64,000 nucleotides of DNA from contig JBAYJO010000002.1 in NCBI GenBank assembly GCA_041665085.1, forward strand, positions 83,413 to 147,412, given 5' to 3'. The notes under the pieces were generated by a model that did no database searches, had not been told where the DNA came from, and saw nothing but the letters and a program-made list of their open reading frames with translations. The position numbers and the translations under genes are program-made. Position 1 is the stretch's first letter. Every line of letters begins with the position of its first letter. Shown piece after piece: positions 4,251-62,917 of the stretch. Source of the stretch: Patescibacteria group bacterium (GTDB lineage Bacteria; Patescibacteriota; UBA1384; JBAYJO01).

Positions 4251-4252
4251 AA

Positions 4253-4678: not shown

Positions 4679-4688
4679 GTCATGCCAC

Positions 4689-9916: not shown

Positions 9917-9963
9917 CTGTTGGATAGCTTGATTATAAAATATAGACTAGAGATAAACAATAA

Positions 9964-22541: not shown

Positions 22542-22553
22542 ATCCCTCTTTAT

Positions 22554-23828
22554 TTAAAATGTTGAAATTTCCCCTTGAACTTGTTGAGTCGAACTATCGC
22601 TGCTTTTTCCAAGCAAAAATAATTGCATCTCAAGCCAAAAACTTAAGTCGGATTCGAGTTGATATGACCTGCTAAATCTTTCACCCCCGGTGCTTAATTG
22701 AAAGTGTAATTGTCCTTCTGAAGGTATATCAGAAATGGTGCCGATTTGATCTCCTGCATTTACATTGAAACGATCCTCTGGTTTACTGGTTTTAATACCG
22801 GCAAGTATGACTGAAGCATTTGTTGTTGTGTCTCCGCTCTCTGCACTAGTTTCATCAGCATTGTTATTTGAAATAATTTCAATTCTTTCTTGGTCTGTCC
22901 CTCTGCCGTAAACATAGGCAATACCGGAAAGAGGCGCCCAAACAGGGCTGCCTTTTGCAATAGCTATATCAACGGCATCATTATATCTACCCAGATCACC
23001 AAAGTCGGGATTGAAAATTGATTTGTATACATTGTGATCTGCAACAGCACCGTTGTTGAATGCTGAAAATCCGTGTAAAGTTTTTCCATAACCAGTAATT
23101 AAAGTTGGATTGATCGGAAGAGTTGTTGTGGTGGAAAATGCCGATGTTTCAGAATCGGTTTTTGTTAATACTTTTCCATTAAAATTGTAAATTAATTGAA
23201 CCAAATATACAGATAAACTATCCGAGAGGTTGGATATTACGGTGTTGTTAGTGGCACTTGATCCTTGAGCAAGCACTATTTGATCAATTGTTGGAAGAAT
23301 TTTATTATTAATTAAATCATCACCATTTCGTAATTGTTGTTTTTTTCCTTCATCTGTTTCGGTTTCAAGTTTATTTTGAATTTCTTTACTAACTTTCTGA
23401 ACAGCTGTGCTGATTGAGCTTCCTTTGTTGGCAATTAATTCGGCATTCTTTTTTGGATCAGCTAAAGCCTCAATTTCTAAGGTATTTTTTTTATCTTCTA
23501 TTGTTCCGGTTGGGGTATCCGGACTGCATCTACCGCCATTACAACTTAATGCTGCAGCAAAAAAAGCAATTGCAATTGCTATTATGGCTATTATTATTAC
23601 AATTGGAATCCAATAAGGAGAAAGTGCAGCCCACGCAGCAGTTGCTGCTGCTTTTATTCCCGATTTCCAGATAGTTTCTACTATAAATTTCTTAAATCTA
23701 TCTTTGAGAATAGCTTTAGCTTTTTCTGCAGCTTGCTCTTTGAGATTATTAACAACACCCGGCCCTGTTCCTTTGTTGTTGTTTTCTATCTCTTGGTTGT
23801 CCTCTTGTGGTTGTCCTAAGTCTGCCAT
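22554..23828 (-). CDS. Membrane-anchored protein with degenerate LytM/M23 peptidase-like domain
   Basis: Has GSPVWAPLSGIAYV and AGDQIGTIS...GQLHFQL. The expected HxxxD motif reads YNDAVD and HLHFE reads QLHFQ. The catalytic histidines therefore appear substituted. Confidence 0.45.
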   Translation of the reverse strand: MADLGQPQEDNQEIENNNKGTGPGVVNNLKEQAAEKAKAILKDRFKKFIVETIWKSGIKAAATAAWAALSPYWIPIVIIIAIIAIAIAFFAAALSCNGGRCSPDTPTGTIEDKKNTLEIEALADPKKNAELIANKGSSISTAVQKVSKEIQNKLETETDEGKKQQLRNGDDLINNKILPTIDQIVLAQGSSATNNTVISNLSDSLSVYLVQLIYNFNGKVLTKTDSETSAFSTTTTLPINPTLITGYGKTLHGFSAFNNGAVADHNVYKSIFNPDFGDLGRYNDAVDIAIAKGSPVWAPLSGIAYVYGRGTDQERIEIISNNNADETSAESGDTTTNASVILAGIKTSKPEDRFNVNAGDQIGTISDIPSEGQLHFQLSTGGERFSRSYQLESDLSFWLEMQLFLLGKSSDSSTQQVQGEISTF

Positions 23829-23829
23829 T

Positions 23830-24981
23830 TTAATTCCACCCTGTTAATAAATCGATTTCATAAAAATTATTATTAGCTATGTAGTAAGCTTTGTTGCTAT
23901 CTATTACGATAATTTGTGAAATAGCACCTAATACGGTTGTTTGAAACGGAATCATTTTTGATTGGGTTAAATCTATTAAATATAATGTATTATTATCAAA
24001 AGCTACCAATTTATTGCTTTCTTTAATCCAACTTATTTGTTTGACATTTGATTTTGCAGATAAATTATAAACCAATTCACCATTAAATTTTATAATTTTT
24101 AAATTATTGTCAGTATTATTAACTATTATGTATTCATTTTCAGGCGAAGGAAGAAAGTCAGAGACTTGTTCGGCAATTTTTTTGGTTTCAAGCGTGGTTA
24201 AATCAAGTAAATATAAATCATTTTCAGCGATTAGGACTTTTAAACCATCAGGTGTGAACATAAGTTTTGGGTTATTTAAATTTAGACTTTTCAGGTTCAA
24301 AATTATTTTTGAATTTTGCCCATTGTTATCAGAGAGAATTAATAATTTTTCTCCGCTGTCAGGATATGAAGTATAGGCTATTTTGTCTTGATCCGGGGAA
24401 AGAGCAAAATCATTTATTTTAGTTGCAATGGATTTTTGAGTCTGATTGACAAGATCATATCGTCTAAATTCATAGAAAAATAATTCATTTCCTCTTTGGA
24501 CCAAACAATTTTGTTCATCCGGAAAAAAAACAATTTTTGAAGCGTTGCCAAAGTTTTCGGATGTTATTTTTTGATCTTGGTTATTTATGTGTTTGTAAAG
24601 AGCGCCATTTGAAAGATAGTAAATATTGTCTTTGTATTTTGTTACATATGCGGCATTTTTTGCAATTTCTATAGGTTTTGGCAATTCCGCAAGAATTGGC
24701 GAAATGGTTGTTGTAATTCCCGGGTTTATTTTAATATTTCTAAAAAAAGAAACAAAACCATCTTTTGCAACTTTAATTATATAATTACCGGTTTTAAGTT
24801 TTGCGTTTAAAGTAATAGGTTTTTCATTAGCATAAACAGTTACCTCTTTAGGGGTTGATTCGATATTTAAAGTTCCTTTGGAAAAGAAATAGATATACCC
24901 GAGAGTTACAAAAATTAGCAAACCTAAAACTAAAGGGATTGCTTTGATTTTTGCAGATAATCTAAACTTGGAGAACGCCAA
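23830..24981 (-). CDS. N-terminally anchored PEGA-domain / TolB-like beta-propeller protein
   Basis: TM helix, then a PEGA-like segment (VTVYANEKPITLNAKLKTGNYIIKVAKDGF), then a repetitive beta-strand-rich region. Confidence 0.4.
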   Translation of the reverse strand: MAFSKFRLSAKIKAIPLVLGLLIFVTLGYIYFFSKGTLNIESTPKEVTVYANEKPITLNAKLKTGNYIIKVAKDGFVSFFRNIKINPGITTTISPILAELPKPIEIAKNAAYVTKYKDNIYYLSNGALYKHINNQDQKITSENFGNASKIVFFPDEQNCLVQRGNELFFYEFRRYDLVNQTQKSIATKINDFALSPDQDKIAYTSYPDSGEKLLILSDNNGQNSKIILNLKSLNLNNPKLMFTPDGLKVLIAENDLYLLDLTTLETKKIAEQVSDFLPSPENEYIIVNNTDNNLKIIKFNGELVYNLSAKSNVKQISWIKESNKLVAFDNNTLYLIDLTQSKMIPFQTTVLGAISQIIVIDSNKAYYIANNNFYEIDLLTGWN

Positions 24982-25137
24982 TTTGTCCCCTCCTCACCAT
25001 TAATCTTCTTCTTGATTATATATTTTAATAACTCTTTTGTAAAAGTGTGGAAATCATTTTTAGTTTGTTGATACGTCTCTTGATTTTTTAACCAAATCGG
25101 TATAAAATATAGCCATCTGATTTCTGGAGGAGATAGG

Positions 25138-25914
25138 ATGAAAACAGTTACTCTGGTATTGTTGGTTTGTTTGTCATTGGTGTCGGTGGCTCATGCGGAC
25201 AAAGTCTTGATGAAAGCCGATCTGAACAAGGACGGCAAACAGGAGAGTGTCATCAAGACAGATTACTCATATGGAAGTGGCGGGAGCTTCTATTTCATTT
25301 ATGTCAAAGCAGGATCTAAGGATCTGTTTTACCAAGGGTTCTGCTTGGGCAACGGCGATTTCCTTGTCCGCGATGTCAATCCTCGTTATCCGGGCAAGGA
25401 GATTGTGGTGTGGTATAAGTCTGATGAGAAGCCCTACCGCTTCGAAATCACTTGGTGGGGTTGGGATAAGACAATTGGGCACTACTCAATGTATAGTGCG
25501 GTGCTTTCGAAGAAGACTACTTGGCAAGCGGCGCTGAAGGAGTATGAAGGAAAAGAAGAGAAGATCCCGTTTTGCCAGATGATTGCTCGAGCTAGAATCT
25601 TGCTCTCATCGTTGAAGAATAAGGATATTTCGGCTGTTGATCGTGCGCTGGGTCCTGGTATGGAAGGAACTTACGAGAAGTATAACGATCAGATGTGGCC
25701 GGAACCGGGCTCGACTGCCTTTCAAAACCAGTTTTTCTGTAAGTTGATAGATTGGCCTCAAGGTAAAGGCAACGACTGGTTTTGTAGTGTTGTTTTCGAG
25801 GGGATAGAACCTAGAAAAGGATGGGATAGCGGCTATTCTATACAGATAAACTACATATCCGAGTCCCACCATCAATATCCTCGCGACTGGGAACCTTGGA
25901 CACCGGGAGGATAA
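25138..25914 (+). CDS. Secreted hypothetical protein, GC-rich (about 47%) foreign-composition gene on the opposite strand within the operon
   Basis: Signal peptide MKTVTLVLLVCLSLVSVAHA. Own promoter-like TTGATT-N17-TATAAA and SD ggaggag. No recognisable domains. Confidence 0.55.
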   Translation: MKTVTLVLLVCLSLVSVAHADKVLMKADLNKDGKQESVIKTDYSYGSGGSFYFIYVKAGSKDLFYQGFCLGNGDFLVRDVNPRYPGKEIVVWYKSDEKPYRFEITWWGWDKTIGHYSMYSAVLSKKTTWQAALKEYEGKEEKIPFCQMIARARILLSSLKNKDISAVDRALGPGMEGTYEKYNDQMWPEPGSTAFQNQFFCKLIDWPQGKGNDWFCSVVFEGIEPRKGWDSGYSIQINYISESHHQYPRDWEPWTPGG

Positions 25915-25956
25915 TAGAAAACTGGTGTACGGGCGAATAGTTCATGCACATACACT

Positions 25957-25979
25957 TCGGGCCCCGCTTCGCGGGGCCC
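25957..25979. other. GC-rich perfect hairpin (cgggccccgc-ttc-gcggggcccg) downstream of the GC-rich gene
   Basis: 10-bp perfect stem with no U-tract on either strand. Confidence 0.4.
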
Positions 25980-25995
25980 GAACTATTATATATAT

Positions 25996-27042
25996 TTAAT
26001 TGAATTTATAAAGATAATTATTTGAAAGAAAATAAATCAAATTATTGCTGTCCAGCAGGATAGTGGTTGGATCTAAATTTTCTCCTATAAATTGTTTTTG
26101 TTCAATTGTGTTGGTCTTGGTGTCGGCGATAAATATATTATCCTCTGAAGTGACCTTATTATTTAAGCTATAATAAAGTTTATCGCTAATTAGATTAAAT
26201 TTATCTAGATTTTGGTTGTTTGTAATATTGTTGATTTTAAAGATTGATCCGTCGGTTGTATTGATTATTTCAAAAATATTATTATCTTCTTTTTTATACT
26301 GAATCAATATTTTTTGTTCTGACGGGTATATTTTTTCAGTTATAAAAACATTTTCATAAAGAATATCCTTTTTTTTACTTTTCAGGTTTAATCTTACAAA
26401 GTCAACTAACATATCTTCTTTGACGTTTTCACAATAAATATCTTGAGTATCGGGGTTGTAATATTTGAATTCATCACAATTTTCCGGGTCGCTGATTTTT
26501 TGAAAGTTAGTTCCGTCCCAATCAGATTGGTTAATAGATACTTTACTAACATCTAAATATTCATAAATTAATTTATCGTCTGACCAGTAAGGATCGAAAA
26601 TATTTTCATTTAATTTACTAAGCTTTTCCTGTTCTAAATTGTAAGTATAAAAAATTTCAAGATTATTTATCTGATCAGTAGTGTTCATTAAAATGAGTTT
26701 TTTGTCATTTGACCAACTAACATAATTAATATAAGGAACATCTATAGGATAATTCTTAATGGTTGTTTTGTCTTTTAAAGAATATTTAATAATTGCTTGT
26801 TCCTTTCCAGCGATATATAATAGTTCCGAATTTTCATTTATAGTGGGAAAAAATATAGTATCATTTAAAATTTGTTTAGCATTTGTAGTTTTTGTTGAAT
26901 TAGTATTATTGTTATTTTTGTTTTTATTTAGAAGTAAAAACATAATTAAAAGTCCAAAAAATAAGATTATGATTGTGATAATTAATATTATTTTTTTTCG
27001 ATTATTTAACATGTTTTCCTTTCTATTAAGGGCAGACAGCAC
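25996..27042 (-). CDS. N-terminally anchored beta-propeller-like protein (hypothetical)
   Basis: TM helix, an Asn/Thr-rich linker, and a repetitive beta-rich region. Overlaps the upstream gene by 17 nt. Confidence 0.45.
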   Translation of the reverse strand: MLSALNRKENMLNNRKKIILIITIIILFFGLLIMFLLLNKNKNNNNTNSTKTTNAKQILNDTIFFPTINENSELLYIAGKEQAIIKYSLKDKTTIKNYPIDVPYINYVSWSNDKKLILMNTTDQINNLEIFYTYNLEQEKLSKLNENIFDPYWSDDKLIYEYLDVSKVSINQSDWDGTNFQKISDPENCDEFKYYNPDTQDIYCENVKEDMLVDFVRLNLKSKKKDILYENVFITEKIYPSEQKILIQYKKEDNNIFEIINTTDGSIFKINNITNNQNLDKFNLISDKLYYSLNNKVTSEDNIFIADTKTNTIEQKQFIGENLDPTTILLDSNNLIYFLSNNYLYKFN

Positions 27043-28207
27043 CTTTGCTTTTTAAATAATAAATATGACTACCAAGAAAAGCAGAAGGATTTAATAAAGA
27101 TGCAATTGGGTAGATTGGATTGCGATTCATGGGATCAGCTAAAATAAAATTTGTATTATCCGGACTAACTCCTATTATTAGCACTCTATGCGCGCTACTT
27201 GTAAACGATTTTCTTCCTGGAATGTTGGCTGTTGTGTTTGCTCCAATGACTACTGGGATTTGTTGGTTTAAATAACATTTTATTTTTTCTAGTGTCGGCG
27301 GGCGTTTAGCAGAACCAAGTGGTACATATTTTATTTTTCCAGACAATTCTGTTGGTGTTGAGGTTGGAAGTCCCCATGACATATTATTGCCTCCCGGTGT
27401 GTATAAATCCCAAACTGTATCAGGAATAATGATTTGTTTCTGCATGGCATAATTTACTGCCATGCAAACCGAAGTGACAGCGCATCCAACTCTTCGAACC
27501 AAAGGATTGCTTGCCTCTGTTTGATATAGTCTGTAAGGATTAAAATTAGCAAGGCTTCCAGCAATAATATTTTCGATTTCATAGAAATATTGGTATGCTT
27601 CTATTACTCTCCCAACATAAGGCCTTGTTTCTTTGAATGTTTGGCCAACAGACCATGGTTTGCCCGAATTGTATCTTGAGGCTGCATCGCGTAATTTATC
27701 TAAATCAGTTGTATTTCCACCCGCACCATTCATAGCGCATAGATGTGCGGCAGCGAAGGCCGAATCCCAGATATTTTGTATTTCCATTCGTCCATCACCG
27801 TTACCATCTTGTTTGTGACCTTCCCATGTTATTGGCATAAATTGAAATGGTCCGCTTGCTCCGACTGTAGATGATGCCCAAGGTCCTGTAATGTCCGGCC
27901 AAGGAATACTTGGATTAAAATGAAAATCTGAATGGCCTCCTCCATGTTCCCCACCCATGAACATCGCGGCAATAAAAGCAGGTTGTACTTTCCATTTTTC
28001 TCCTGCTGCTGAAAACACTTTCGCATATTCTTCAGGAATATTTTTGAGTCCACCCTCGGCAAACATCTCAGCGGTTTTGCCGGGATTGTCGCTTTGGTTT
28101 CCGGCAAATAGGCCAAGAGCAAACATTGCTCCGATTGCAACAAAAACTACAACAATAATTATAATTACAATTTGAATAAATCCTTGATTTTTCTTTTCGC
28201 TTTTCAT
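27026..28207 (-). CDS. Bifunctional cell-wall hydrolase: lytic transglycosylase (SLT) domain plus C-terminal CHAP/C39-like cysteine peptidase domain (VirB1/PrgK/TcpG-like)
   Basis: N-terminal TM helix. SLT motif GASGPFQFMPITW. C-terminal RVGCAVTSVCMAVNY ... HRVLIIGV suggests a Cys/His peptidase. Located immediately downstream of VirB4. Confidence 0.55.
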   Translation of the reverse strand: MKSEKKNQGFIQIVIIIIVVVFVAIGAMFALGLFAGNQSDNPGKTAEMFAEGGLKNIPEEYAKVFSAAGEKWKVQPAFIAAMFMGGEHGGGHSDFHFNPSIPWPDITGPWASSTVGASGPFQFMPITWEGHKQDGNGDGRMEIQNIWDSAFAAAHLCAMNGAGGNTTDLDKLRDAASRYNSGKPWSVGQTFKETRPYVGRVIEAYQYFYEIENIIAGSLANFNPYRLYQTEASNPLVRRVGCAVTSVCMAVNYAMQKQIIIPDTVWDLYTPGGNNMSWGLPTSTPTELSGKIKYVPLGSAKRPPTLEKIKCYLNQQIPVVIGANTTANIPGRKSFTSSAHRVLIIGVSPDNTNFILADPMNRNPIYPIASLLNPSAFLGSHIYYLKSKGAVCP

Positions 28208-30066
28208 GAGCTTGATGATGTTGTTGACTGCGAGGCGAGTTCTCTTGCCGCTAGGATTTCTTTTGGATCGGTGGTAATAAGTTGATCTTCAGTGTATGAC
28301 GCGATCATTTTAATGGCAACATGATTCATGCCGGCAAAGAAAATACCCTCTCCTACTCCTGATTCAAGGAGAAGCATTTTTTCACCCTCGGTTAGATTGA
28401 ATACTTCAACGACTTTATCAATTGCTGAAGTGGATTGCTTAAGAAGGATCTGCATTGCCGCATTAGAGATAACACTTCTACCGTATTTTGAATCCAAAAA
28501 ATCTTCAACATCTTGACTGATAATACTGACTCCAAGATAATATTTTCTTGCTCTTTTAACGAGCGAGTAAAGGAATTTTGCCGAGTCTTCATATTGCATC
28601 ATCCACCATGCCTCATCAATAATTAGCAGTCTTCTTTTTAATTTAAATCTGATTTGACTCCAAATGTAAGTTAAAATCATATACATTCCAATTGGACGAA
28701 GTTCATCTTCAAGATCTCGAACCGAGAAACAAACGAATTTATTGCTTAAATCAAAATTGGTTGGTTTGGTAAATAGTCCGGCAAAACTTCCTTCGGTGTA
28801 TTTTTGCAATTTCTTAACCATATTTTCTGCGCCGTTCATATTGGTTAAAATGCTTTGAAGATCTGTTATTAATGGTGCGGGGTTTTTTTGACTTTCCGGG
28901 TCGATGGTAATATCTTTTAAGGCATAAGTTTCATATAAAGCCTTATCCATAATGCCGTCTTCTTCAGGTGTTAATCCTTGCAACATCAAACCAAGAAGGC
29001 CATGTAAGGTTGCGATAGTTGTTCTTAAGTTGTCTTCACCTGATTCACCATCCATAACTGCCGGAAGATCAAACGGGTTAATTCTGGTATCAGAGTTAAG
29101 TGAAAGGTTTAGATAACTTCCACCAACTGCTTCGCAAAGTTGTTTGTATTCATTTTCAGGGTCGATAATAATTACATCAGTATCAAGCATCAGATATCTG
29201 ACAGCTTCGAGCTTGATTGTGTAAGATTTACCGGCACCGGTAGTAGCGAAAATTACAGAGTTAGCGTTTTCTAAATTAAATCTATCAAATAAGACCAGTG
29301 AATTATTATGTCTGTTTAGTCCGTATAATATTCCTTCATTTGAGGTTAAAGTGGCGGAAGTGAATGGGAATGTGGTTGAAAGCGATCCCGTATCAAGATT
29401 TCTAGCTACATTTAATTGATCATGGAAAAGTGGAAGAGTAGCGGTAAAGCCTTGTTCCATCTGAAGAAGAGCCTGTTTTGTATAAATCAGCATTCCGCCA
29501 AGGGTTGATTCAAGCTGTTTTGAAACAGTATCAAGATCTTTGACCGAATCGGCATAAATTGTAAAATAAAGGGCAAATTGGAAAAGTCTGACCTCTCCTC
29601 TTTGCAGGACATCTCGCAATTCTTCAATATCTGAAATTGCGGTTTGGAGTTCAGGGTCTCGGATAATTCCTTTTTCCCGTTGGATTGATTCAGTTGATTC
29701 CAGCTGTGTAGCTTTTCTTCTTAAATTATTCATAACTTCATTAGATTTCAAAGGCATAATATTCATAGCGATATCTAAAGTTACATCGAAATCAATAATT
29801 GGTGAGATCCAATTAGTTTGAATGTAGCGCGGATAAGTGAAAACAAATAATGTGCGAGCAAATTTGTTGCCTATTTGAACATAATTTGGCTTGACCATAA
29901 AAGCAGCTGGAGCAATAAGATCAAGTACATTACTTAAACCTTGTTTGAATGTCATTTCCAGATTGCTGTTTGCTATTCCCGCGGCTTTATTTTCTTGTTT
30001 GGTGGGAGCAGGACTTTGCGGGGCAGTATTATTTTTATTTTCTATAGGATTATTTTGTGGTGGCAT
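28204..30066 (-). CDS. virB4: VirB4/TrbE/CagE-family T4SS ATPase, ATPase portion (C-terminal 620 aa of a split VirB4)
   Basis: Walker A ATTGAGKSYT, Walker B LLIIDEAW, and an FVFTYPRY region. Own SD GGAAGGAGAAA directly before the ATG. Confidence 0.75.
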   Translation of the reverse strand: MPPQNNPIENKNNTAPQSPAPTKQENKAAGIANSNLEMTFKQGLSNVLDLIAPAAFMVKPNYVQIGNKFARTLFVFTYPRYIQTNWISPIIDFDVTLDIAMNIMPLKSNEVMNNLRRKATQLESTESIQREKGIIRDPELQTAISDIEELRDVLQRGEVRLFQFALYFTIYADSVKDLDTVSKQLESTLGGMLIYTKQALLQMEQGFTATLPLFHDQLNVARNLDTGSLSTTFPFTSATLTSNEGILYGLNRHNNSLVLFDRFNLENANSVIFATTGAGKSYTIKLEAVRYLMLDTDVIIIDPENEYKQLCEAVGGSYLNLSLNSDTRINPFDLPAVMDGESGEDNLRTTIATLHGLLGLMLQGLTPEEDGIMDKALYETYALKDITIDPESQKNPAPLITDLQSILTNMNGAENMVKKLQKYTEGSFAGLFTKPTNFDLSNKFVCFSVRDLEDELRPIGMYMILTYIWSQIRFKLKRRLLIIDEAWWMMQYEDSAKFLYSLVKRARKYYLGVSIISQDVEDFLDSKYGRSVISNAAMQILLKQSTSAIDKVVEVFNLTEGEKMLLLESGVGEGIFFAGMNHVAIKMIASYTEDQLITTDPKEILAARELASQSTTSSSS

Positions 30067-30748
30067 TTTCTCCTTCCTTGGTTGAGATTAATGCACTTTC
30101 TAAAACATTAACATCAGCTAATTTTTCTTCTGATGATTCTTCAGGGTTATAAATTTCATAAAATAATTCAACTAATTCTTGGGTTGATAACATTGCAGCC
30201 CGAAGTCCAAGACTGGCAAGTCCGGAGACGATCACACCTGTTCTTTCTGTTATTAGGGATTTGTATTGCAACAGTTGTTTTTCATCAATATTAATAGTTT
30301 GCTGCGATTTGTTTCCAAAAAGACCTGAAAATAAACCTCCGCCCGGTTTATTTAAGACCGGTGGCGAGTAAGGGACAACGACGAAAAATTGTTTATCCAT
30401 AATGTTTGCGATATTGATCAGTCTTTGAACATATTCAATATAATCAGCGATCTGGATACTCATAAGTTCATTTTCTTCAGCTTCTAACTTTTTCTTTAAT
30501 TGATTGATATAAGGTGTCAAATCGAGTTTTTTTGACCTGACAATAATTTGGATAGGAAATTCAAGAGAGTTTAAAAAACCTTGATAGGAAAAGATTAAGG
30601 CATTTTGTTCTCGCTCTGATTTTAATGCAAAGTTGACCGAGCTTACCAAAAGAACAGCACGAAAATCACCTGTTTTTAAAATGACTAATTCGTCGCGAAT
30701 CTCGGCGATGTCAAGATGTTGTTGTGTGCTGGACTGTTTCTGTGCCAA
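30050..30748 (-). CDS. VirB4 N-terminal domain protein (CagE_TrbE_VirB-like), separate ORF
   Basis: DIAEIRDELVILKTGDFRAVLLVSSVNFALKSEREQNALIFSYQGFLNSLEFPIQIIV matches the VirB4/TraC N-terminal consensus. Its TAA stop lies 14 nt after the ATG of the ATPase ORF. Confidence 0.6.
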   Translation of the reverse strand: MAQKQSSTQQHLDIAEIRDELVILKTGDFRAVLLVSSVNFALKSEREQNALIFSYQGFLNSLEFPIQIIVRSKKLDLTPYINQLKKKLEAEENELMSIQIADYIEYVQRLINIANIMDKQFFVVVPYSPPVLNKPGGGLFSGLFGNKSQQTINIDEKQLLQYKSLITERTGVIVSGLASLGLRAAMLSTQELVELFYEIYNPEESSEEKLADVNVLESALISTKEGENATTK

Positions 30749-31436
30749 GATTTCCTCCAGTTAAATTATTTGGCGCAATTGGTTGGTTATTTATTGGTGT
30801 TTGCCCGGTAGGCGGGGCTTGATTTGGTAGAGGAGTAGAAGCTGTTGGTTTGGCTGATTTCATATTGGATATATCTGTTATTGGTGCAGGGGCTGACATT
30901 GTTTGTAATTCTTTTGCCTGTTTCATTTGTTCGACTTGCATTGATTCAGTTGTGTGAGGGGTTTCAACTTTTTCGAGTGATTTCCATCCCCCGCTGTCTA
31001 ATGTCTGTGCTAATTTCTGCAATTCGGATTTGCTAATTTTCTTTTTAGGTAAAGTTGGTTCAACGCGTTTTTCCTTGTGAGGAAGAATTATAGCTTCTTG
31101 CATTGAACCTTTTTGCCATACTCTTTCGCGCGGCTTGGTAATAAATGAAATTAAAGCAAGAATAAAATGTGAAAATGGTTGATCTTGAGGTTTGTAGAAA
31201 GTAAAAGCCAAGATAAGAATTGCTGTTGGTAATCCGGTCGCAATAAAAAGAGGCATTGGTAAAGTCGTTAGGAGAATATAGATAATAGAGCCTCCGATTG
31301 CAACAAAAATAAATTGCTTCAGCGTAAGAGGTCCGACAATTTTATCCTCCATATCTATGTTTTGCGGTACTCGGTATTGCACTTCCCTCCTTAGAGAATG
31401 TTTGGCTCTGCGTCTTGTCAGCAGACCTATTGTCAT
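30711..31436 (-). CDS. VirB3/PrgI-like small membrane protein with Pro/Gln-rich C-terminal tail (start uncertain)
   Basis: Two TM helices (FIFVAIGGSIIYILLTTLPMPLFIATGLPTAILILAFTF) directly upstream of VirB4. Alternative starts: GTG after SD AAGGAGG (about 31382) or ATG at 31352. Confidence 0.4.
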   Translation of the reverse strand: MTIGLLTRRRAKHSLRREVQYRVPQNIDMEDKIVGPLTLKQFIFVAIGGSIIYILLTTLPMPLFIATGLPTAILILAFTFYKPQDQPFSHFILALISFITKPRERVWQKGSMQEAIILPHKEKRVEPTLPKKKISKSELQKLAQTLDSGGWKSLEKVETPHTTESMQVEQMKQAKELQTMSAPAPITDISNMKSAKPTASTPLPNQAPPTGQTPINNQPIAPNNLTGGNLGTETVQHTTTS

Positions 31437-31503
31437 TATTAAGTATATAGCGTGAAAAATAAAAAATCAAAATTTTGAATTTTTCATATTATAAAATATT
31501 TGA

Positions 31504-31836
31504 TTAAACAGATGCGGTATTATCTTGAATCAGCTTTTGAGCTGCTTCCTTTAATTCTTGGTAAAGCTCAACTATAGCGTTTGAAAGCTTTCCTTTAAAA
31601 TCAGGAATTGTGGTTGAAATTTCTTGAATAATTTCTTCTTCGGTTTTATTTTCCATCATTTTTTCTAAATCATCGGGATTAGAGTCTGGGAGGTTAGCTA
31701 AAATAACTTCCATGGTTTTTTGAGCTACTCGTTCTCTAATAAGTTCTATTAATTCTGATTTGGTTGGATCGGCTAGATTTTCAAGTCCCAAATCTTTTAA
31801 GATTTGATCTGCTAATTCAGTTGGTTCGCTATTCAT
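31504..31836 (-). CDS. Small acidic hypothetical protein
   Basis: 110-aa Glu/Asp-rich ORF in the operon with no recognisable motifs. Confidence 0.4.
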   Translation of the reverse strand: MNSEPTELADQILKDLGLENLADPTKSELIELIRERVAQKTMEVILANLPDSNPDDLEKMMENKTEEEIIQEISTTIPDFKGKLSNAIVELYQELKEAAQKLIQDNTASV

Positions 31837-31875
31837 GGTTCCTCCGATTTATTATTTTTTTAAATATAATTAAAC

Positions 31876-33186
31876 CTATAATTTTGGAGTTTGACCTTCA
31901 AATAAGAATGTCCAAACCTGTTCAAAGGCAGTTTTTCCTCCTCCGCCGCCATATCCTTCGCCACCAGAACTATTTGTTCCAAAACCAAATTCTGATTCAT
32001 AATATGGCATACCCTGGTCAATTTGATTTTCATCACCTAATAAAGAATCGAATTGCTCTTTATTAATTCCGGCCAGTTTTTTAAATTTATAAAAACAGGC
32101 TTCGTGTGAGTCTAAATAACTGTTAATCTTTCCGGTCTGATCTAGTGAGGCACTTGCTTTAAAAGATTGGTATTTTTGTTCATTGGTAATTTCTTGGTTT
32201 GCTAAAAGTTCTTGAAGTTGGGGTATAAGTTCAGGAGCAACATTTCCTGCTTCAAATTGTGTAATAATTGCATCACTTTCTTTGCAATTTATTTTAGAGA
32301 GAAATTTTGACCAATAATCGGATTTTGTGCCGTCGCTAGCTAAATAGCAAGCTAATCTATCTGTAATAAGTTCTTCGGCTATTTGTTTAAGCTGATGATT
32401 TTGAAATTGTTCATAACTGTCCGGTTTGGTTATTCCTTTGGCTAAATATTTCTCATATAATAATTCCATTTGAGTTTTACCCTCGTCGTTTTTTTCACCC
32501 GAAAATCGACTGATTAGACCTTGAATATGATAAGTTTCACCTGATGCGGCTTTGGGGTCTTGAAGTCCGGCTCGAATTGTTTCAAGAGAGTAAGCGAATT
32601 CTGGAGGTAAACTTGAGGAATCAATTGTTTCACCTGAATTTAGATTTGCTGCATGATCTAGATATTGTGTTAACTCATTTGATTCATAAATCATTCCACT
32701 ATGAATAAGACCATGAGATATTTCGTGTTGGAGAGTGTATTCTGTATCTATATTTTCAATTGTACTTGTGCCATTGAAAAATTCCGGTGAGATATAAAGT
32801 GTTTCTTGATCAAAACACATTATCGGATCATTTGGATCTCCTTCGTAAAGATCTGTTGATAGTATCACTTTAGAAATAACTGTTTCTGTGATTTCTTGAG
32901 CTAGTTCAGGATTTACAATATGTCTTTCGGCAAGTCCTTTTGTAATTTGATTATATAATTCTTGAAACTTTTTTTTATAAGATTCTCTTTTAGTTCTTTC
33001 TTCATCCGTTAATTTTTCATCAGTTTCCCCAAACAATAATTCTTGATTTGTTGTTGTTGGGGCTTGTTCGTCTTGCTCGGTTTGCTGACCTGATGGATTT
33101 GGAGGCGCAAAAACTGAACCCGCTGTTTGAGTTGGCTCGGTTTGAGATTGAGGTGTTTCTGTTTCTGTTTCAGGAAGATCAAACAT
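31876..33186 (-). CDS. Hypothetical protein with HExxH zinc-metallopeptidase-like motif and low-complexity termini
   Basis: HEISH within TLQHEISHGLIHSGM. The N-terminus is Q/T/E-rich and the C-terminus is Gly-rich (GGEGYGGGGGK). Confidence 0.4.
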   Translation of the reverse strand: MFDLPETETETPQSQTEPTQTAGSVFAPPNPSGQQTEQDEQAPTTTNQELLFGETDEKLTDEERTKRESYKKKFQELYNQITKGLAERHIVNPELAQEITETVISKVILSTDLYEGDPNDPIMCFDQETLYISPEFFNGTSTIENIDTEYTLQHEISHGLIHSGMIYESNELTQYLDHAANLNSGETIDSSSLPPEFAYSLETIRAGLQDPKAASGETYHIQGLISRFSGEKNDEGKTQMELLYEKYLAKGITKPDSYEQFQNHQLKQIAEELITDRLACYLASDGTKSDYWSKFLSKINCKESDAIITQFEAGNVAPELIPQLQELLANQEITNEQKYQSFKASASLDQTGKINSYLDSHEACFYKFKKLAGINKEQFDSLLGDENQIDQGMPYYESEFGFGTNSSGGEGYGGGGGKTAFEQVWTFLFEGQTPKL

Positions 33187-33188: not shown

Positions 33189-36161
33189 CTATATAGTTCC
33201 ATTAGTTGGAGGAGGAGTTGGTTCTGATGGTGGAGGTGTCTGTTGTTCTTGGACTGGTGGAGTCGGTGCTTGTTCGGCTGGTGGTGCGGATTCTGTGTGT
33301 GGTGCCCCTGTTGGGGTTTGACCGGTGTTTTCTGCAGCAGCTTCCGTATTTATTGTAACGGCTGGGGCAGTATTTGGTGAATTTTTTGGCGTACTCTGAT
33401 TAACTCCTTGCTTAACAGCTTGACTGAAAACTCTTTTAAATTTACGGCTGGTTAGAACTGAACCTAGTTCGGCAGCAGAGCTAATAGGTTTTATGCTTGT
33501 TTGAGATGCAGCGGTTTTAAAGGCTGATTGAAGCATAGGTTTTAGGTTGTTTATGTTTTTTAAATTTTCTCCCATACCTTCAATACTTGAAGCGATTTTT
33601 TCGAGTGGTCCGGTTAGTTTTTCTTCAAGTCCTTCAAAACTGCCGTTTGATGTAGCTAAGTGTTGTTGAGTAATTGATTCGGCTTGTTTGGCGGCGTAAC
33701 CTTGTCTGTAAATTGACCGGTGATTTGCTTTTTGAAGGCTTTCTATGACCGGTAAACTTGTTTCACTAAATTCCGGTTTTTGAAATTCTTTATAAATATC
33801 CTCGCTTTTTAAGGTTTCCATTCCTTTGATAACATGCTGAATATTTCTTTTCATGGTTTCTTCATCAGGCGAGGCTTCTGCTATTGCAGGAGAAATATTC
33901 TTTAGCTCTGCGTGACGAATTTCAAAAGAACGGTTGCTTGATCCGATCTCTTCCATCTGATCCTGCACCTTGCTTAGTGTTTCTTCATTAATTTCTGTAC
34001 CGTTTAATTTAAGTTGCCTTGCAACTCCCAGCGCTTCGATACCGGCTGTTTTTTCGGTTGATTCATAAATATGGTCGGCAAATTTTTCCAGATATTTATT
34101 TTCTCTAGCCCTTTGTCCTTTGGCCGATCCTTCAAGTTCAGTCCATTGGGTGGTTGTGATATTGCGGTTTCCTCCGTATTTCGATGAGATATCTTGATAA
34201 GTGGCGCCAGAGTTTATTTCATCTAAAACCGCACTCGCGTCAACTGATTCACCTAAAATACCTTTAACTTTATCTTGATCAGCGCCCATTGAAACATCGT
34301 CATTAGTTTTTTCAGTCATGCGGTCTGTTCTTGATTGGTCGATTTCTTGTAATTTAGAAATTTCATCGGCTGTAAGATTTTGTCCGTCTTGTTTAACAAT
34401 AATTGCTCCTGCTTTTAAACCTGCCAAAGCTTTATCTGTGTCGACATCGTTGCCTAGAATTTTTTTTATTGCCGATTCTTCTTTTTGGCTTATAGCATTT
34501 TCGAGTTCATTTGCCATATCGTCAAAAGTTCGTCCGCTACCTGTTCCAGCAGCAAAAGCCGGGATAGGGCGTCCACCTCCGCCGCCAGCGCCTGCTGCAG
34601 CTTTAGCAGCAGCTGTTCTAGCCTCTTTTAATAAGTCGGCGGCTCCTTTCTTTCCTCCTGATGATCTAGTAAGTTGTATCCATCTGTTAAATTGTTGAAC
34701 TAAATCTGCTCTTTCTTCAAGTCCAAGTGCATCGAGCCCTTCTATACCGGTTTTTTTTGATGAAATTTTTGCAGGGCTTAAGGTTAGCATTTCTGTTAAC
34801 TGTTTATCTTCCAAGGTAATTCCTTTTGCGGCTAAATCAGCTTGAGTTTTATTGAATTTATCCCATACAATTTTAGGATCGTTTACAAAGCCGTTGATCT
34901 CGCCTTTTTCTTTGAGATATGCCATATAGCTTGGTTTTGATCCGGCCAGTCCACCAAAAATTCGGCCTTTTTTAGCATCTGATATTCTGGCTTTTTCTGC
35001 ATCTTCAGTTCTCATTTTCCAAGCATCTTTTGCGCCATAGAAATTTGTATTTTTAAAACCTTTTCCTACCGTGTTTTTAATCCATGCTTTTGCTCCTCTG
35101 TCAGTATCTTTGGCTTTAATGCCTGATCCTTTACTCCAAACTGATCCATAGGCTTTGCTTGCTAGTCCTCCGCCTTGTTTAAGAAGCCCGGACCAAGCTC
35201 CCATAACTCCGCCTCCCATGCTCAAAGGTATTTTTGCCGAGTAATATAAAGCGCCAATTAAGATTAAATATCTCATTAAAGCCATTCCTTGGCTTGGAGT
35301 GGCTCCTCCGCCTAAAGCATCAGCAATTGTAACGCCTATCCATATGACGAAGAAAGTTATGCAAGGCATAAATGTCCATTTAAAATACAAGTCCCACCAT
35401 TGCTTGAAATATTTCTCTGTAATTGGAAATCCAACCGAGAAGAATGCAATTGGTGAAGCGATAGTTAAAGCTATAACAACAAAATATCTGATATAGAAAA
35501 GTAAAATCAAAGCCCAGAAAAATAAAATTGGGGCAAAAAGCAAGAGTACTAGAAGAATAAATGCTCCGCATCCACCAATAAATATCCACGAAACAACAAT
35601 GCCGATTATGCCCAAACTAGCTACTCCGGAATTTGTCCATAAGCTCATACTTTCAATAGTTCCGATTCCAAGTTGTTCATAGACTTTCTCAAGCAAACCT
35701 CCTGATCCTGAACCCACGGCGGTTGCCGAACCCATTGTTAATAACCAATTTGAAAAAACAGCAGATGCTTCAAGAAGAAGTCGGCAGACTAAAAGTGAAA
35801 AGTTGGCTAAAATTGCGCCCAAAATAAGTGATGGCAGAATCTTTTTAATAGAATATGTGTCAATATTGAATCTTAAGACATTGGCTGTACCGGTAAAAAG
35901 TATAAAAATTACAAACAGTGAGTTTGACATGGCAAGTAATACTTTCCATGCACTCATAACTCCGCTTTCTACAATAGTGTCGGAAAGTTGTTTAAAATCA
36001 GGGTCAGCAGCATAGACATTTTTTATGATTGGCAGATTGTGTAATGGATTTAAAAGAGTATCAAAATCGATTTGATACAAATTTTTAAATACTATAATAC
36101 CGACAAAAATAGAAATAATTGCTGACAAGCCGATTTTTAAATAATTAAGCTTTTTTTCCAT
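33189..36161 (-). CDS. VirB6/TrbL-like polytopic membrane protein with about 650-aa hydrophilic C-terminal extension and Pro-rich tail
   Basis: At least 7 TM helices in the first 330 aa. A long K/A/G/E-rich C-terminal region ends in PTPPVQEQQTPPPSEPTPPPT. Confidence 0.5.
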   Translation of the reverse strand: MEKKLNYLKIGLSAIISIFVGIIVFKNLYQIDFDTLLNPLHNLPIIKNVYAADPDFKQLSDTIVESGVMSAWKVLLAMSNSLFVIFILFTGTANVLRFNIDTYSIKKILPSLILGAILANFSLLVCRLLLEASAVFSNWLLTMGSATAVGSGSGGLLEKVYEQLGIGTIESMSLWTNSGVASLGIIGIVVSWIFIGGCGAFILLVLLLFAPILFFWALILLFYIRYFVVIALTIASPIAFFSVGFPITEKYFKQWWDLYFKWTFMPCITFFVIWIGVTIADALGGGATPSQGMALMRYLILIGALYYSAKIPLSMGGGVMGAWSGLLKQGGGLASKAYGSVWSKGSGIKAKDTDRGAKAWIKNTVGKGFKNTNFYGAKDAWKMRTEDAEKARISDAKKGRIFGGLAGSKPSYMAYLKEKGEINGFVNDPKIVWDKFNKTQADLAAKGITLEDKQLTEMLTLSPAKISSKKTGIEGLDALGLEERADLVQQFNRWIQLTRSSGGKKGAADLLKEARTAAAKAAAGAGGGGGRPIPAFAAGTGSGRTFDDMANELENAISQKEESAIKKILGNDVDTDKALAGLKAGAIIVKQDGQNLTADEISKLQEIDQSRTDRMTEKTNDDVSMGADQDKVKGILGESVDASAVLDEINSGATYQDISSKYGGNRNITTTQWTELEGSAKGQRARENKYLEKFADHIYESTEKTAGIEALGVARQLKLNGTEINEETLSKVQDQMEEIGSSNRSFEIRHAELKNISPAIAEASPDEETMKRNIQHVIKGMETLKSEDIYKEFQKPEFSETSLPVIESLQKANHRSIYRQGYAAKQAESITQQHLATSNGSFEGLEEKLTGPLEKIASSIEGMGENLKNINNLKPMLQSAFKTAASQTSIKPISSAAELGSVLTSRKFKRVFSQAVKQGVNQSTPKNSPNTAPAVTINTEAAAENTGQTPTGAPHTESAPPAEQAPTPPVQEQQTPPPSEPTPPPTNGTI

Positions 36162-36163: not shown

Positions 36164-37141
36164 TTATACCACTAAATTTCTTAATCTATCGTTTGTGCCT
36201 TTGGCAAATCCGGCGATAATACTCCAAACAGCTTTGGCTACATCGCACATAACTCGTCCGATTAGAATGCCGGGAAAACCGCAATCGTTTCCGCCGATTT
36301 GCTCGATGATACTAATGTCTGCTAGTTTATGTTGAGTGTCGGAAGGAATTAGTTTTGTTTTGTCAAGAGTCATTGTTTGTTTGTAAACATTATGTTCACC
36401 AATTTTAGGCATATGGGTGTAGTCAGTTTGATTGAAATCTTTTTGAAAGAAATAGTATTGTTCTTTACCCCCATCTATAGAGATTTTTTCTGGTGTATAA
36501 ACAAATAATTGTGTTTTACCGGTATATACATCAGTATGAATTCGGGCTTGTGTATCTGTGCCTAGGCTATCATGAATTAATTTTAAATTCATTTCACCTG
36601 ATTTTAATGTTCCTTCAGCTAAAATTGGTCCATTGTTTGGCATTCGAATTTGAGCTTTAAATCCATCTGCTGGTAGGGCTATTTCAAATTCGTAATAAGT
36701 GTCATCGTTTTTGGAATGATCGGAAAAATCTGTTCCATCTTTGATTGATTGTGCAGAGGCAAGAGCAGCCCAGTTGCCACCTTTGCTAGCTGAATTATAA
36801 GTTTGGTTAATTATCAAATTATCTTCATCGGTTGTAGCATAACAAGTAGTAATCTGATCGCTTTTCCAAACATTTACCATGTATCCTGTAAAAGCGGTTG
36901 ATCTGGCTCCTGTCCATGTATAGGTGTCGGTTTCCGACAAACAAGCCGGCTCCTCAACCCCGTCAAGTCGAGTAAGTTTAAAGTCATTTGTGGATTTTTT
37001 TTCAAATTTCCAATAGTCGGCAGCATAAGCTTTTGGTGGATTTGTAAATATAAATGCAAAATTTGCCAATAATAATATTAGCATCATCAGGGCTCGGTAT
37101 TTTAATTTATTTTTAAACATTGTCCCCTCATAAGTATGCAT
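36164..37141 (-). CDS. Secreted protein with conserved pilin-like C-terminal tail (paralog A)
   Basis: Signal peptide. The C-terminus CDVAKAVWSIIAGFAKGTNDRLRNLVV is near-identical to the C-terminus of 37269..38348. Confidence 0.5.
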   Translation of the reverse strand: MHTYEGTMFKNKLKYRALMMLILLLANFAFIFTNPPKAYAADYWKFEKKSTNDFKLTRLDGVEEPACLSETDTYTWTGARSTAFTGYMVNVWKSDQITTCYATTDEDNLIINQTYNSASKGGNWAALASAQSIKDGTDFSDHSKNDDTYYEFEIALPADGFKAQIRMPNNGPILAEGTLKSGEMNLKLIHDSLGTDTQARIHTDVYTGKTQLFVYTPEKISIDGGKEQYYFFQKDFNQTDYTHMPKIGEHNVYKQTMTLDKTKLIPSDTQHKLADISIIEQIGGNDCGFPGILIGRVMCDVAKAVWSIIAGFAKGTNDRLRNLVV

Positions 37142-37216
37142 CTTAAATTATTATAACAGCTGACTTGGAATTTTGAAATTATTAAAGTTTAATCGCTAGA
37201 TGTATTTAAACCAATT

Positions 37217-37266
37217 CTCTGGATCCCAGCCTGCGCTGGGATGACAAAAGAAGTTGGGATGACAAC
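37217..37266. repeat. Hairpin repeat copy (ATCCCAGC-ctgc-GCTGGGAT plus partial second unit) between the two paralogous secreted-protein genes
   Basis: ctctggatcccagcctgcgctgggatgac is identical to 4193-4221 and 5609-5637. Confidence 0.7.
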
Positions 37267-37268
37267 TG

Positions 37269-38348
37269 TTAAACAACCAAATCCCTTAGTCGGTCGTTGG
37301 TACCTTTGGCAAAACCTGCAACTATTGACCACACTAAATTTGCAATATCACATACTATTTTATTTAAAAAGCGCCCAAGTTTGAAATTGCAGGGGTCAGG
37401 ATTGTCTGTTGGAGGGCTTGTAACGGTGTGTCCTACAACAGTGGTAATTTTCACATCAGTATCAGCCGGTTTAGAGTAATCAAATTTTGTAAAATCAATT
37501 AAAACAATATCCGAGGTTGTGCTACCGTCTTTATCATATGTTGCTGAGATTCTGTATGCAACAACATCTGTTCCGGAGACATTATGAGTAAATTTTGTTA
37601 CTGCTTTATCAACTGTGCCGACTTCTCCTAATCTGTCGTTAATATTTGTTCCCGATGCGTCGGGTGCTGTGCCTGATTCGATTTCAAATGATTTGAGATC
37701 AGTTGTGTTGGTTGGTTTGTCCCAGCTTAATTCAACTTTTGCAGCTTTATTGCTATAAGTAGAAACTTTTACTTTAAGATTAAGCGGTCTTCTTGTATCT
37801 AAAGTATCGGTTTGCCCGGATAATCCGCCTTCGGTTGTTTTTATCACGCTTCCACTTGGGGTTGTGGTTCCTTTTGTTGTCATTGTAAGTGTGCCTAGTG
37901 AAACTGTGTATCTATCAACTCCGCAAGCAACTACATTATTTGGATCATTATTTTCATCACGATCATTGTCCGGATTATATGGGTTGTCTTGCCAAGTTTT
38001 TTTACAGATTTTTGAATCACTTACTGAAAAAGACTTAGTAAAATTTTCATAACCAGTTTTTGATAGTTGCAGTTTATAGTTGCCTACAACAGGTGTGTAA
38101 ATTACAAAGCAGTTCGAATCTGTTCCCGGCTCTGAAGTAAAAGAATTGCCGGTAAAGGTGTTTTTGATCTCTTTTGTAGTGCCATCCGGATGAGTTAATT
38201 TTACATCGACTTGTCCCGGTTTTGAATCAAACTTTAAAAAAACCACATTACCTGTCATTGCAGATGCTTTTTCAATATTAATGTTTGAAAATGAAAAAAT
38301 CTGCAAGATGCAGCCTAGACAAATCATTGTACCGATAACTTTTTTCAT
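37269..38348 (-). CDS. Secreted PEGA-like / Ig-like domain protein with conserved pilin-like C-terminal tail (paralog B); first gene of the operon
   Basis: Signal peptide and a PEGA-like segment (VGNYKLQLSKTGYENF). The C-terminus CDIANLVWSIVAGFAKGTNDRLRDLVV matches the neighbouring paralog. Confidence 0.5.
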   Translation of the reverse strand: MKKVIGTMICLGCILQIFSFSNINIEKASAMTGNVVFLKFDSKPGQVDVKLTHPDGTTKEIKNTFTGNSFTSEPGTDSNCFVIYTPVVGNYKLQLSKTGYENFTKSFSVSDSKICKKTWQDNPYNPDNDRDENNDPNNVVACGVDRYTVSLGTLTMTTKGTTTPSGSVIKTTEGGLSGQTDTLDTRRPLNLKVKVSTYSNKAAKVELSWDKPTNTTDLKSFEIESGTAPDASGTNINDRLGEVGTVDKAVTKFTHNVSGTDVVAYRISATYDKDGSTTSDIVLIDFTKFDYSKPADTDVKITTVVGHTVTSPPTDNPDPCNFKLGRFLNKIVCDIANLVWSIVAGFAKGTNDRLRDLVV

Positions 38349-38372: not shown

Positions 38373-38861
38373 CTATTTCTTAGAAAATCCGATAAATTTA
38401 TTATAACATTCTTCAGTTTTTTCAGCATTGCCCTGGTTTTTATAAGCGAGTGAGAGATATTTATAGGTTTCAGGATAAATTGGGTCAATTTTTTTTGCGT
38501 TTTCAAGTGCTTTGATGGCAGAGTCGGCATCATCTGTTTTAAGATAAGCAATTCCTAAGTATAACCATCCATCTCGATAGTTTTCGTCATCTGAAACGGT
38601 TTTTTCAAGAGTAATAAGTGCAAGTTCTGTTTCACCTGTGTTTAATTGTTTAATGCCTTGAATTAAGAATTCATAAGGAGTTTTGTTTTTAGATTCGATA
38701 TTGGTTTTATAGAGATTAATCGTTTCAAGTCTTGTCTGATCGTTTGAAATGATTTTTTGATTTGTGATTTTACTGGAAATAAAAAAATTAATTATAAATA
38801 AAATAAGCCCAAGAGCGATTATTTTTAATAAATTAGGGTGTTTTTGGAAAGTTGTCTTCAT
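38373..38861 (-). CDS. TPR-repeat protein with N-terminal TM anchor
   Basis: N-terminal TM helix, then TPR-like repeats (WLYLGIAYLKTDDADSAIKALENAKKIDP..YKYLSLAYKNQGN). Confidence 0.55.
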   Translation of the reverse strand: MKTTFQKHPNLLKIIALGLILFIINFFISSKITNQKIISNDQTRLETINLYKTNIESKNKTPYEFLIQGIKQLNTGETELALITLEKTVSDDENYRDGWLYLGIAYLKTDDADSAIKALENAKKIDPIYPETYKYLSLAYKNQGNAEKTEECYNKFIGFSKK

Positions 38862-51216: not shown

Positions 51217-51344
51217 TTTGTCATTCCAGACTCCTATTTCGTCATCCTAGCGACCAGTCTCGCCGAGCCTAGGCGGAAAGCTGGGATCCAGAGAGTTTGT
51301 TTGTTTTTTATACTTCTAGATTCCAGCCTGCGCTGGAATGACAC
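51217..51344. repeat. Composite hairpin repeat (reverse-orientation copy of the 41237-41363 element, plus ATTCCAGC-ctgc-GCTGGAAT)
   Basis: tttgtcattccagac..., then agcgaccagtctcgccgagcctaggcggaaagct (reverse complement of 41321-41354), then ttccagcctgcgctggaatgacacc. Confidence 0.75.
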
Positions 51345-62840: not shown

Positions 62841-62917
62841 GTCATCCCAGTGCAGGTTGGGATCTAGCTTTTTAAAATAATAATGTAATTTATAGATTCC
62901 TGCTTTCGCGGGAATGA
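62841..62917. repeat. Hairpin repeat pair (ATCCCA-gtgcaggt-TGGGAT and ATTCC-tgctttcgcg-GGAATGAC)
   Basis: The family termini GTCATCCCAG.. and ..GGGAATGAC are present. Confidence 0.6.

Follow-up and report, generated by a model that had tools for sequence, protein, structure and literature searches.

Two secreted proteins encoded beside a VirB6-like gene in a Patescibacteria type IV secretion cluster share a C-terminal tail of two cysteines and an amphipathic helix

Among type IV secretion systems (T4SS), the closest described counterpart to the proteins considered here is VirB5, pentamers of which are mounted on a VirB6 pentamer; the pilus grows between the two, and VirB5 ends at the pilus tip as an adhesin (PMC9259494). 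For the monoderm T4SS, VirB2-like pilins have been modelled on the VirB6-like PrgH, and a pilus tip of the VirB5 type was looked for without success in a Gram-positive system (bioRxiv 10.64898/2025.12.18.695078). The T4SS type of the Patescibacteria, already described as having variable pilin arrays and lacking relaxase and coupling proteins (PMC10633639, PMC12102498, PMC12857230), likewise yielded no adhesin or VirB5 in surveys of the clade (PMC12102498), and it is essential for epibiotic growth in Southlakia epibionticum, the one species tested (PMC10633639). Here we analyze two adjacent open reading frames (ORFs), A and B, from the metagenome-assembled genome of an uncultured Patescibacteria group bacterium. 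They lie in a 64,000-nucleotide stretch, hereafter the window (assembly GCA_041665085.1, contig JBAYJO010000002.1, positions 83,413 to 147,412), near the head of a minus-strand T4SS cluster of the monoderm type that sits beside dnaA, dnaN and recF. Both proteins end in a closely similar tail, and we tentatively favour the reading that this tail is an extracytoplasmic docking module that would tether variable, beta-rich exoproteins to the T4SS platform, being like VirB5 in function and not homologous to it.

A previous reading of the window made from its letters (the sequence-only reading) had placed two adjacent secreted proteins here, and the ORFs were found at exactly the coordinates it gave, on the minus strand, both with Sec-type signal peptides whose cleavage motifs could be read from the sequence (…KAYA/AD… in A and …KASA/MT… in B); the C-termini it quoted were also correct. 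A BlastP comparison of A with B gave a single significant high-scoring segment pair, at the tail (25/40 residues identical, E-value 3e-14), all others having E-values of 0.05 or more, and 22 of the last 27 residues are identical. The similarity is thus far beyond chance, but the length of the shared region had been put at 27 residues, whereas the module runs for ~40, starting at the first conserved cysteine (C287 in A, C320 in B). Its layout is C-x11/12-C, the second cysteine being C299 in A and C333 in B, with a hydrophobic loop between the two; then comes D[VI]A..VWSI[IV]AGFAKGTNDRLR[ND]LVV up to the stop codon, which comprises an amphipathic helix of ~17–24 residues, a G-T-N turn and a terminal DRLR[ND]LVV. 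Hydrophobic residues recur at a spacing of 3–4 along the helix (positions 2, 6, 9 and 13 after the second cysteine) and the hydrophobic moment is high (0.55–0.65 over 18 residues). Hydrophobicity itself is borderline (Kyte-Doolittle 19-residue maxima of 1.4–1.6 in A and B, and 1.68 in the tail from locus L009, described below), the hydrophobic stretch of A and B being broken up by R, D and K.

At the DNA level the last 27 codons of A and B are identical at 54 of 81 bases (67%), near the ~70% of the sequence-only reading. For 16 of the 22 residues conserved at the end, the two genes use different synonymous codons, and Nei-Gojobori analysis over these 27 codons gave a saturated dS and a dN of 0.16, from which it follows that selection acts on the tail peptide; purifying selection on the tail is strong in both paralogs. 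The saturated synonymous sites led us to reject both recent gene conversion as the source of the identity and conservation at the level of DNA or RNA.

The bodies preceding the tail are a different matter. No significant homology was detected between those of A and B (shuffle P=0.08). ORF A had no Pfam or NCBIfam match, and the PEGA and Ig-like domains that had been assigned to these proteins dissolved into Pfam scores below gathering for B, of 14.8 bits for PEGA (cut-off 20.8) and 14.9 for Ig-like_KY (cut-off 27), with E-values of ~0.03. AlphaFold2 (AF2) single-sequence models, which are of low confidence (pLDDT 37 for A and 44 for B), have beta-rich bodies and helical tails: for A, tail helices at residues 292–315 and 319–324 and a helix at the N-terminal signal peptide, and for B, beta strands followed by a helix at 326–357. 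The mature N-termini also look alike, at residues 43–62 of A (YWKFEKKSTNDFKLTRLDG), residues 37–57 of B (FLKFDSKPGQVDVKLTHPDG) and in the orthologue from locus L002 introduced below (8897–9994, YWKFDLDNN…), the A to B resemblance (YWKFEKK..DFKLTRLDG vs FLKFDSK..DVKLTHPDG) being marginal (shuffle P ~0.04). If it is real, both termini of the family would be conserved, with a variable middle between them.

The VirB6-like protein encoded directly downstream of A has 18 homologues, and we read the contigs of 10 of these. In the loci of the three closest homologues with readable contigs, P0008 (locus L001), P0010 (L002/L003) and P0009 (L009), the gene directly 5' of the VirB6-like gene encodes a protein that ends in a C-terminus of two cysteines and an amphipathic helix, and the genes are as tightly coupled as in the window: the 2-nt spacer there corresponds to a 4-nt overlap at P0008, a 6-nt spacer at P0009 and a 4-nt overlap at P0010. 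The upstream genes of L001 and L002/L003 encode Sec-signal proteins; the L009 contig ends within the gene, so that the N-terminus of this copy is missing. The L001 tail aligned end to end with a hidden Markov model (HMM) of the A and B tails (E-value 1.6e-4 among 919 ORFs from all loci) and matched the B tail on its own by BlastP (2e-5) with unrelated bodies, and homology between the L001 protein and A covers the C-terminal half of the latter (BlastP 6e-8). The L002 protein, P0026, is a full-length orthologue of A, with an alignment that continues through the tail (BlastP 1e-20, phmmer 1e-12). When the tails of A, B and L001 are aligned, both cysteines are invariant, as are positions occupied by F, G, A, V, W, R and L. 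The A family can thus be defined as proteins with a Sec signal, encoded directly upstream of a VirB6-like gene and ending in C-x(11-18)-C plus an amphipathic helix, a description that fits A and the L001 and L002 proteins; the L009 gene probably belongs with them. B has the signal and the tail and is encoded one gene further upstream. The module is the hallmark of a family encoded directly upstream of one VirB6-like subfamily in the monoderm-type T4SS of Patescibacteria. The sequence-only reading had suggested looking for the tail in other ORFs and related genomes; direct searches with the tail were empty, but its architecture was recovered in the syntenic loci L001 and L002/L003.

Gene order in L001 and L002 is TPR protein, A-like protein, VirB6-like protein. 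Because neither locus has B, we regard B as a gene added in this lineage, with the tail retained. The A family is missing from VirB6-like loci at greater distance, where the upstream position is empty or is taken by a different protein with an N-terminal anchor, in some cases accompanied by an LPXTG CLIPPER-domain protein. This other protein type, with a disordered N-terminus, one transmembrane segment, a helical ectodomain and a C-x9-10-C pair ~55 residues from its end, precedes the VirB6-like gene and is in some cases itself preceded by the CLIPPER-domain surface protein, whose LPXTG motif reads LPDTG; the genes concerned are those at L006 7562–8821 and 8941–10011, L015 1389–2762 and 2884–3945, L011 2353–3549 and L013 569–1513. 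These distant-locus proteins may be positional analogues of A and B.

Rates of divergence within the locus differ widely. Between the window and L001, identity is 87% for VirB4, 70% for the TrsD-like protein, 68% for PrgI, 52% for the TPR protein, 39% for the HExxH protein, 35% for the VirB6-like protein and 27%, over half its length, for the A family, which makes the A family the fastest-diverging gene of the locus and the VirB6-like gene the next. The tail sequence drifts between genomes while keeping its plan of cysteine, loop, cysteine and helix, and is near-identical in two paralogs of the same genome whose bodies are unrecognisably different, a pattern that would be expected of a module fitting a genome-specific partner.

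The sequence-only reading had proposed a T4SS-linked C-terminal module carried on different extracellular bodies. Its general idea is supported by context, since the tail tracks a gene tightly coupled upstream of VirB6-like genes in three, probably four, independent lineages, matches between B and L001 with unrelated bodies, and is under purifying selection in both paralogs; its pilin-based specifics are not supported by the six-pilin HMM or by Smith-Waterman comparisons, as set out below. In the docking reading that we favour, the two tail cysteines would form a disulfide after Sec export, so that the hydrophobic loop is stapled onto the helix. On the outer side of the membrane, a T4SS component would be bound by this helix together with the C-terminal stub; the likeliest such component is the VirB6-like platform, a pentamer on which VirB2-like pilins would assemble. 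The fast-evolving beta-rich heads (of A, and here also of B) would thereby be held at the machine or at the pilus tip, in a position to touch the host cell, A and B being alternative or co-assembled heads on one adaptor. We name the VirB6-like platform on the analogy of two other systems: VirB5, which is mounted on VirB6 (PMC9259494), and the pilus modelled for PrgF and PrgH (bioRxiv 10.64898/2025.12.18.695078). The net charge of the tail differs between lineages, from +2 to -2, which is easier to reconcile with a protein partner than with a lipid surface.

Several observations weigh against this docking role. The family comes from only three to four lineages, and the synteny may in part reflect their close relatedness; when A is compared with the L002 protein, conservation is no better in the tail than in the body; the L009 tail, with an E-value of 1.5 against the tail HMM and no Blast match, is assigned from position and architecture only; and the AF2 models have the low confidence noted above. 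In addition, a Pfam search of A and B gave no homology to VirB5, and as the source-contig DNA examined amounts to ~73 kb of 150 kb, tail-bearing proteins unrelated to the T4SS could exist elsewhere on the contig.

The comparison with VirB5/TraC/TrwJ (PF07996) cuts both ways. VirB5 is Sec-exported and encoded beside virB6, and A similarly is secreted, diverges fast and combines a Sec signal with a gene 2 nt upstream of the VirB6-like gene, an adjacency that recurs in L001, L002 and L009. Unlike VirB5, A and B have no PF07996 match and no sequence relative in the PDB; VirB5 is an alpha-helical bundle, whereas their bodies are predicted (at the low confidence of the AF2 models) to be beta-rich; and their conserved element is the C-terminal cysteine loop and helix. 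The location of A and B on the machine is putative. Matching the profiles of neither VirB5 nor VirB2, and lacking the features of VirB2 pilins and of sortase substrates, A and B are outside these three families, and the tail would work most like the attachment of VirB5-type proteins or adhesins to a T4SS.

A generic membrane anchor would dispense with a T4SS partner, the amphipathic helix lying in, or weakly spanning, the outer leaflet of the cytoplasmic membrane and so retaining the exported A and B at the surface of the cell. Amphipathic helices at the extreme C-terminus of Sec-exported proteins do anchor E. coli PBP5 and PBP6 in the membrane, and the A and B tails, with their high hydrophobic moment, borderline hydrophobicity, terminal position and lack of a sortase motif, resemble these. 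They differ from PBP5/6-type anchors, however, in a conserved, disulfide-capable cysteine pair, variable charge without a basic cluster and strict linkage to the T4SS, the module having been seen so far only beside VirB6-like genes; moreover, identity at 22 of 27 residues despite saturated synonymous sites is tighter than lipid-binding helices usually need, and R, D and K interrupt the hydrophobic stretch. We regard simple membrane anchoring as rather unlikely. TPR domains commonly bind C-terminal peptides, and the tail might instead be a ligand of the neighbouring TPR protein, which would then act as a chaperone, pilot or retention receptor of A and B. In L001 and L002/L003 the TPR gene is followed directly by the A-family gene, and in the window by B and then A; it keeps this place in L002 though the genes further upstream differ, is absent from the distant loci without the A family, and encodes a protein that is 52% identical between the window and L001 and has weak NCBIfam similarity to PilW and to TPR chaperones of type III secretion systems. 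On the other hand, only A, B and L001 share the end DLV[VI]-COOH, from which L002 and L009 differ, the adjacency may be plain synteny of related genomes (FemAB and TsaD are also conserved nearby), and the placement of the TPR domain outside the membrane is inferred solely from the N-terminal charge distribution, so we consider such a role quite improbable. Our assessment is equally sceptical for an oligomerisation element, in which the helices of A and/or B chains would bundle into a coiled-coil-like stalk, either independently of the T4SS or before docking: the 3–4 residue spacing of hydrophobic positions, the possibility of mixed oligomers between two co-encoded proteins with the same tail, and compatibility with a pentameric tip all speak for it, but the helix is short, at about four heptads, and broken by G-T-N, and oligomerisation alone does not explain the link to VirB6-like genes.

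The sequence-only reading had likened the tail to the start of the second helix of the VirB2-like pilins, as a mimic that would let A and B enter the pilus lattice as minor pilins. Six T4SS_pilin (PF18895) paralogs are indeed present in the window, and with A and B they share a genome and, putatively, a machine; like the pilins, A and B are variable paralogs that may adapt to hosts (PMC12102498). However, the segment MIWSAIGF, described as conserved in the six pilins, occurs in only one of them, the second (2394–2729), and the corresponding [IV]WS.I.GF of the tails is absent from the orthologous tails (SMVWGLIKSAA, KMVNSFGVELM, AIATGWSVGLA). An HMM of the six pilins gave A and B -0.6 and -0.7 bits, corresponding to an E-value of ~0.08 with the search space set to one sequence, and Smith-Waterman scores of the tails against pilin 2 were 24–25, under the shuffle mean of 27. 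The best match of the tails (LVWSIVAGF…KGTND) was in pilin 1 (2131–2409), where it covers the helix 1 end and the loop (VVWIIVSGY…QGSPD); it is marginal and not significant (P ~0.05–0.07 vs shuffles). Neither A nor B matched PF18895 or PF04956 at E<0.1, and the isolated tails had no match to them at E<10; at 325 and 359 residues the proteins fall outside the pilin size class (~50–150 residues, two hydrophobic helices and a short charged loop), and instead of two long hydrophobic helices the tail has one amphipathic helix, with a hydrophobicity maximum below the 1.9 of pilin helix 2. We therefore reject pilin homology of the tail on its negative HMM scores and sub-shuffle Smith-Waterman scores, treat the resemblance as chance, and hold a pilin-like polymerisation module, already weakly refuted, to be very improbable. 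The other suggestion made from the sequence, a new C-terminal sorting signal, has its models in sortase and CTERM signals, with a short signature motif, a hydrophobic transmembrane stretch and a basic tail (PMC4617865). The A and B tails have no LPXTG-like motif, no charge-free membrane-spanning stretch and no NCBIfam or Pfam CTERM match. Sortase-anchored adhesins of T4SS loci, such as PrgB of Gram-positive conjugation, do resemble A and B in being surface proteins attached through a C-terminal module, and the LPDTG genes of other Patescibacteria lie two upstream of the VirB6-like gene in L006 and L015, roughly the position of B; in A and B, which also lack a basic tail, attachment would be non-covalent. 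Many T4SS substrates carry C-terminal signals, and the tail might be an export or translocation signal for the T4SS, or a sorting signal cleaved by an unknown processing enzyme. The cluster lacks a coupling protein, as does the Sec-dependent Ptl system (PMC12857230). Against this, A and B carry Sec signal peptides, a monoderm cell has no second membrane to cross, sortase-like and CTERM-type features are missing, and the pair of conserved cysteines suggests an element that folds outside the cytoplasm, so that we give an export or cleaved sorting signal hardly any credence.

Searches beyond these loci returned little. The isolated tails had no match in Pfam or NCBIfam, and A, B, the tail profile and the family profile found nothing significant among PDB sequences. 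An exhaustive HMMER search with A identified only A itself, P0026 and B, and a full-length database search with B only B itself. Scans of GTDB genomes and JGI metagenomes, whether with degenerate patterns of the tail or with the alignment of A and its orthologue, gave no confirmed locus, and an extra 9.2 kb of the source contig held no further tail. A word-indexed protein search with the tail produced no candidates, which is a weak negative as not even the source proteins were recovered. A literature search for a Patescibacteria-specific sorting signal found nothing relevant. The tail is thus a previously undescribed module, and a narrowly distributed one, known from three to four lineages when database proteins number in the billions.

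The remainder of the T4SS core (27026–33186, minus strand) is syntenic with L001, and the features of the locus are collected in Table 1. The HExxH protein has counterparts directly downstream of the VirB6-like gene in L001 (13243–14715) and L002 (13388–14497); it has no signal peptide and no Pfam match, a disordered acidic, Q-rich N-terminus, the motif HEISHG or HELGH, and a C-terminal Gly-rich linker followed by a short amphipathic helix (…GGGGGKTAFEQVWTFLFEGQTPKL). Further along the minus strand are a genuine PEGA and beta-propeller membrane protein (23830–24981, PEGA E-value 3e-7), a weak Peptidase_M23 protein (22554–23828) and a 2107-residue protein of no family (16218–22541), with a 258-residue signal-peptide ORF, also of no family, on the opposite strand (25138–25914, plus). 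The cluster (16218–38861) adjoins dnaA-dnaN-recF (12057–15826), a layout that recurs in L004 and agrees with the reported origin-proximal placement of T4SS in Patescibacteria (PMC12102498). The pilin array adjoins an SBP_bac_1/8 solute-binding protein (779–2134, plus), as also occurs in L008 (5539–6873), an unrelated Patescibacteria locus, and is followed directly on the opposite strand by a 597-residue secreted Peptidase_M48 protein (4689–6482, minus, E-value 1e-22). The segment at ~4000–6500 has 49% GC against ~36% for the genome and may be foreign DNA. A 25-nt palindromic repeat, GTCATCCCAGCGCAGGCTGGGATCC, is present in five copies where none is expected by chance, three exact (4197–4221, 5612–5636 and 37221–37245) and two with 3 mismatches (51318–51342 and 62841–62865); one copy is within the M48 peptidase ORF, where it reads VIPAQAGIQ. 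It looks like an element of the repetitive extragenic palindrome (REP) or miniature inverted-repeat transposable element (MITE) kind. The spacer between B and A also holds a promoter-like site before A (37177–37150, TTCAAA-16-TGnTATAAT).

Table 1. Coordinates of the features of the A/B locus; positions are those of the window, except for the tails from other loci, which are given by the position of their genes
Feature	Coordinates	Strand	Details
ORF A	36164-37141	minus	325 residues, NCBI MFA6423094 (called from M8)
Signal peptide of A	37022-37141	minus	~residues 1-40, cleavage motif AYA/AD, read from the sequence
Tail of A	36167-36283	minus	residues 287-325: CGFPGILIGRVMC, then DVAKAVWSIIAGFAKGTNDRLRNLVV
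B-A intergenic spacer	37142-37268	minus	carries a copy of the 25-nt palindromic repeat
ORF B	37269-38348	minus	359 residues, NCBI MFA6423095
Tail of B	37272-37391	minus	residues 320-359: CNFKLGRFLNKIVC, then DIANLVWSIVAGFAKGTNDRLRDLVV
Tail in L001	gene 9156-10004		…ECGFSFGLLSKPLCWAASMVWGLIKSAACDVVKRLSDLVI, then stop
Tail in L002	gene 8897-9994 (P0026)		…KCDGFSWAIQGEAIAAVFCSFQKMVNSFGVELMSKAMDLLKDVLYGSTAH, then stop
Tail in L009	gene 1-951		…TCVGSFRPSFFGTLVVKPLCAMLAIATGWSVGLAKYSVDFLIEAVGLQ, then stop
Membrane-anchored TPR protein	38373-38861	minus	162 residues; followed directly by the A-family gene in L001 and L002
VirB6/TrbL_3-like polytopic membrane protein	33189-36161	minus	990 residues, start 2 nt after the A stop; homologues carry PF19590 TrbL_3
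HExxH protein	31876-33186	minus	436 residues
110-residue protein	31504-31836	minus	
PrgI/VirB3-like protein	30711-31436	minus	
TrsD-like protein	30050-30748	minus	
VirB4	28204-30066	minus	
VirB1-like SLT + C39-like hydrolase	27026-28207	minus	
Further large envelope proteins	16218-27042		
Array of six VirB2-like T4SS_pilin (PF18895) paralogs	2131-4621	plus	

Taking the docking reading further, we speculate, while regarding the full proposal as unlikely, that A and B might be the missing tip or adhesin subunits of the monoderm-type T4SS pilus: analogues of VirB5 that would be docked on the VirB6-like pentamer by the cysteine-stapled helix and carried outward by polymerisation of VirB2-like pilins beneath them, with interchangeable heads that would set which host cell is engaged by the epibiont's essential T4SS. 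The significance of the finding is limited by the narrow distribution of the family. A secreted family that evolves very fast, is coupled to VirB6-like genes and combines a conserved attachment module with exchangeable heads would provide a concrete candidate for the part of the machine that contacts the host, and its tail would be a short peptide suited to multimer modelling and to pull-downs.

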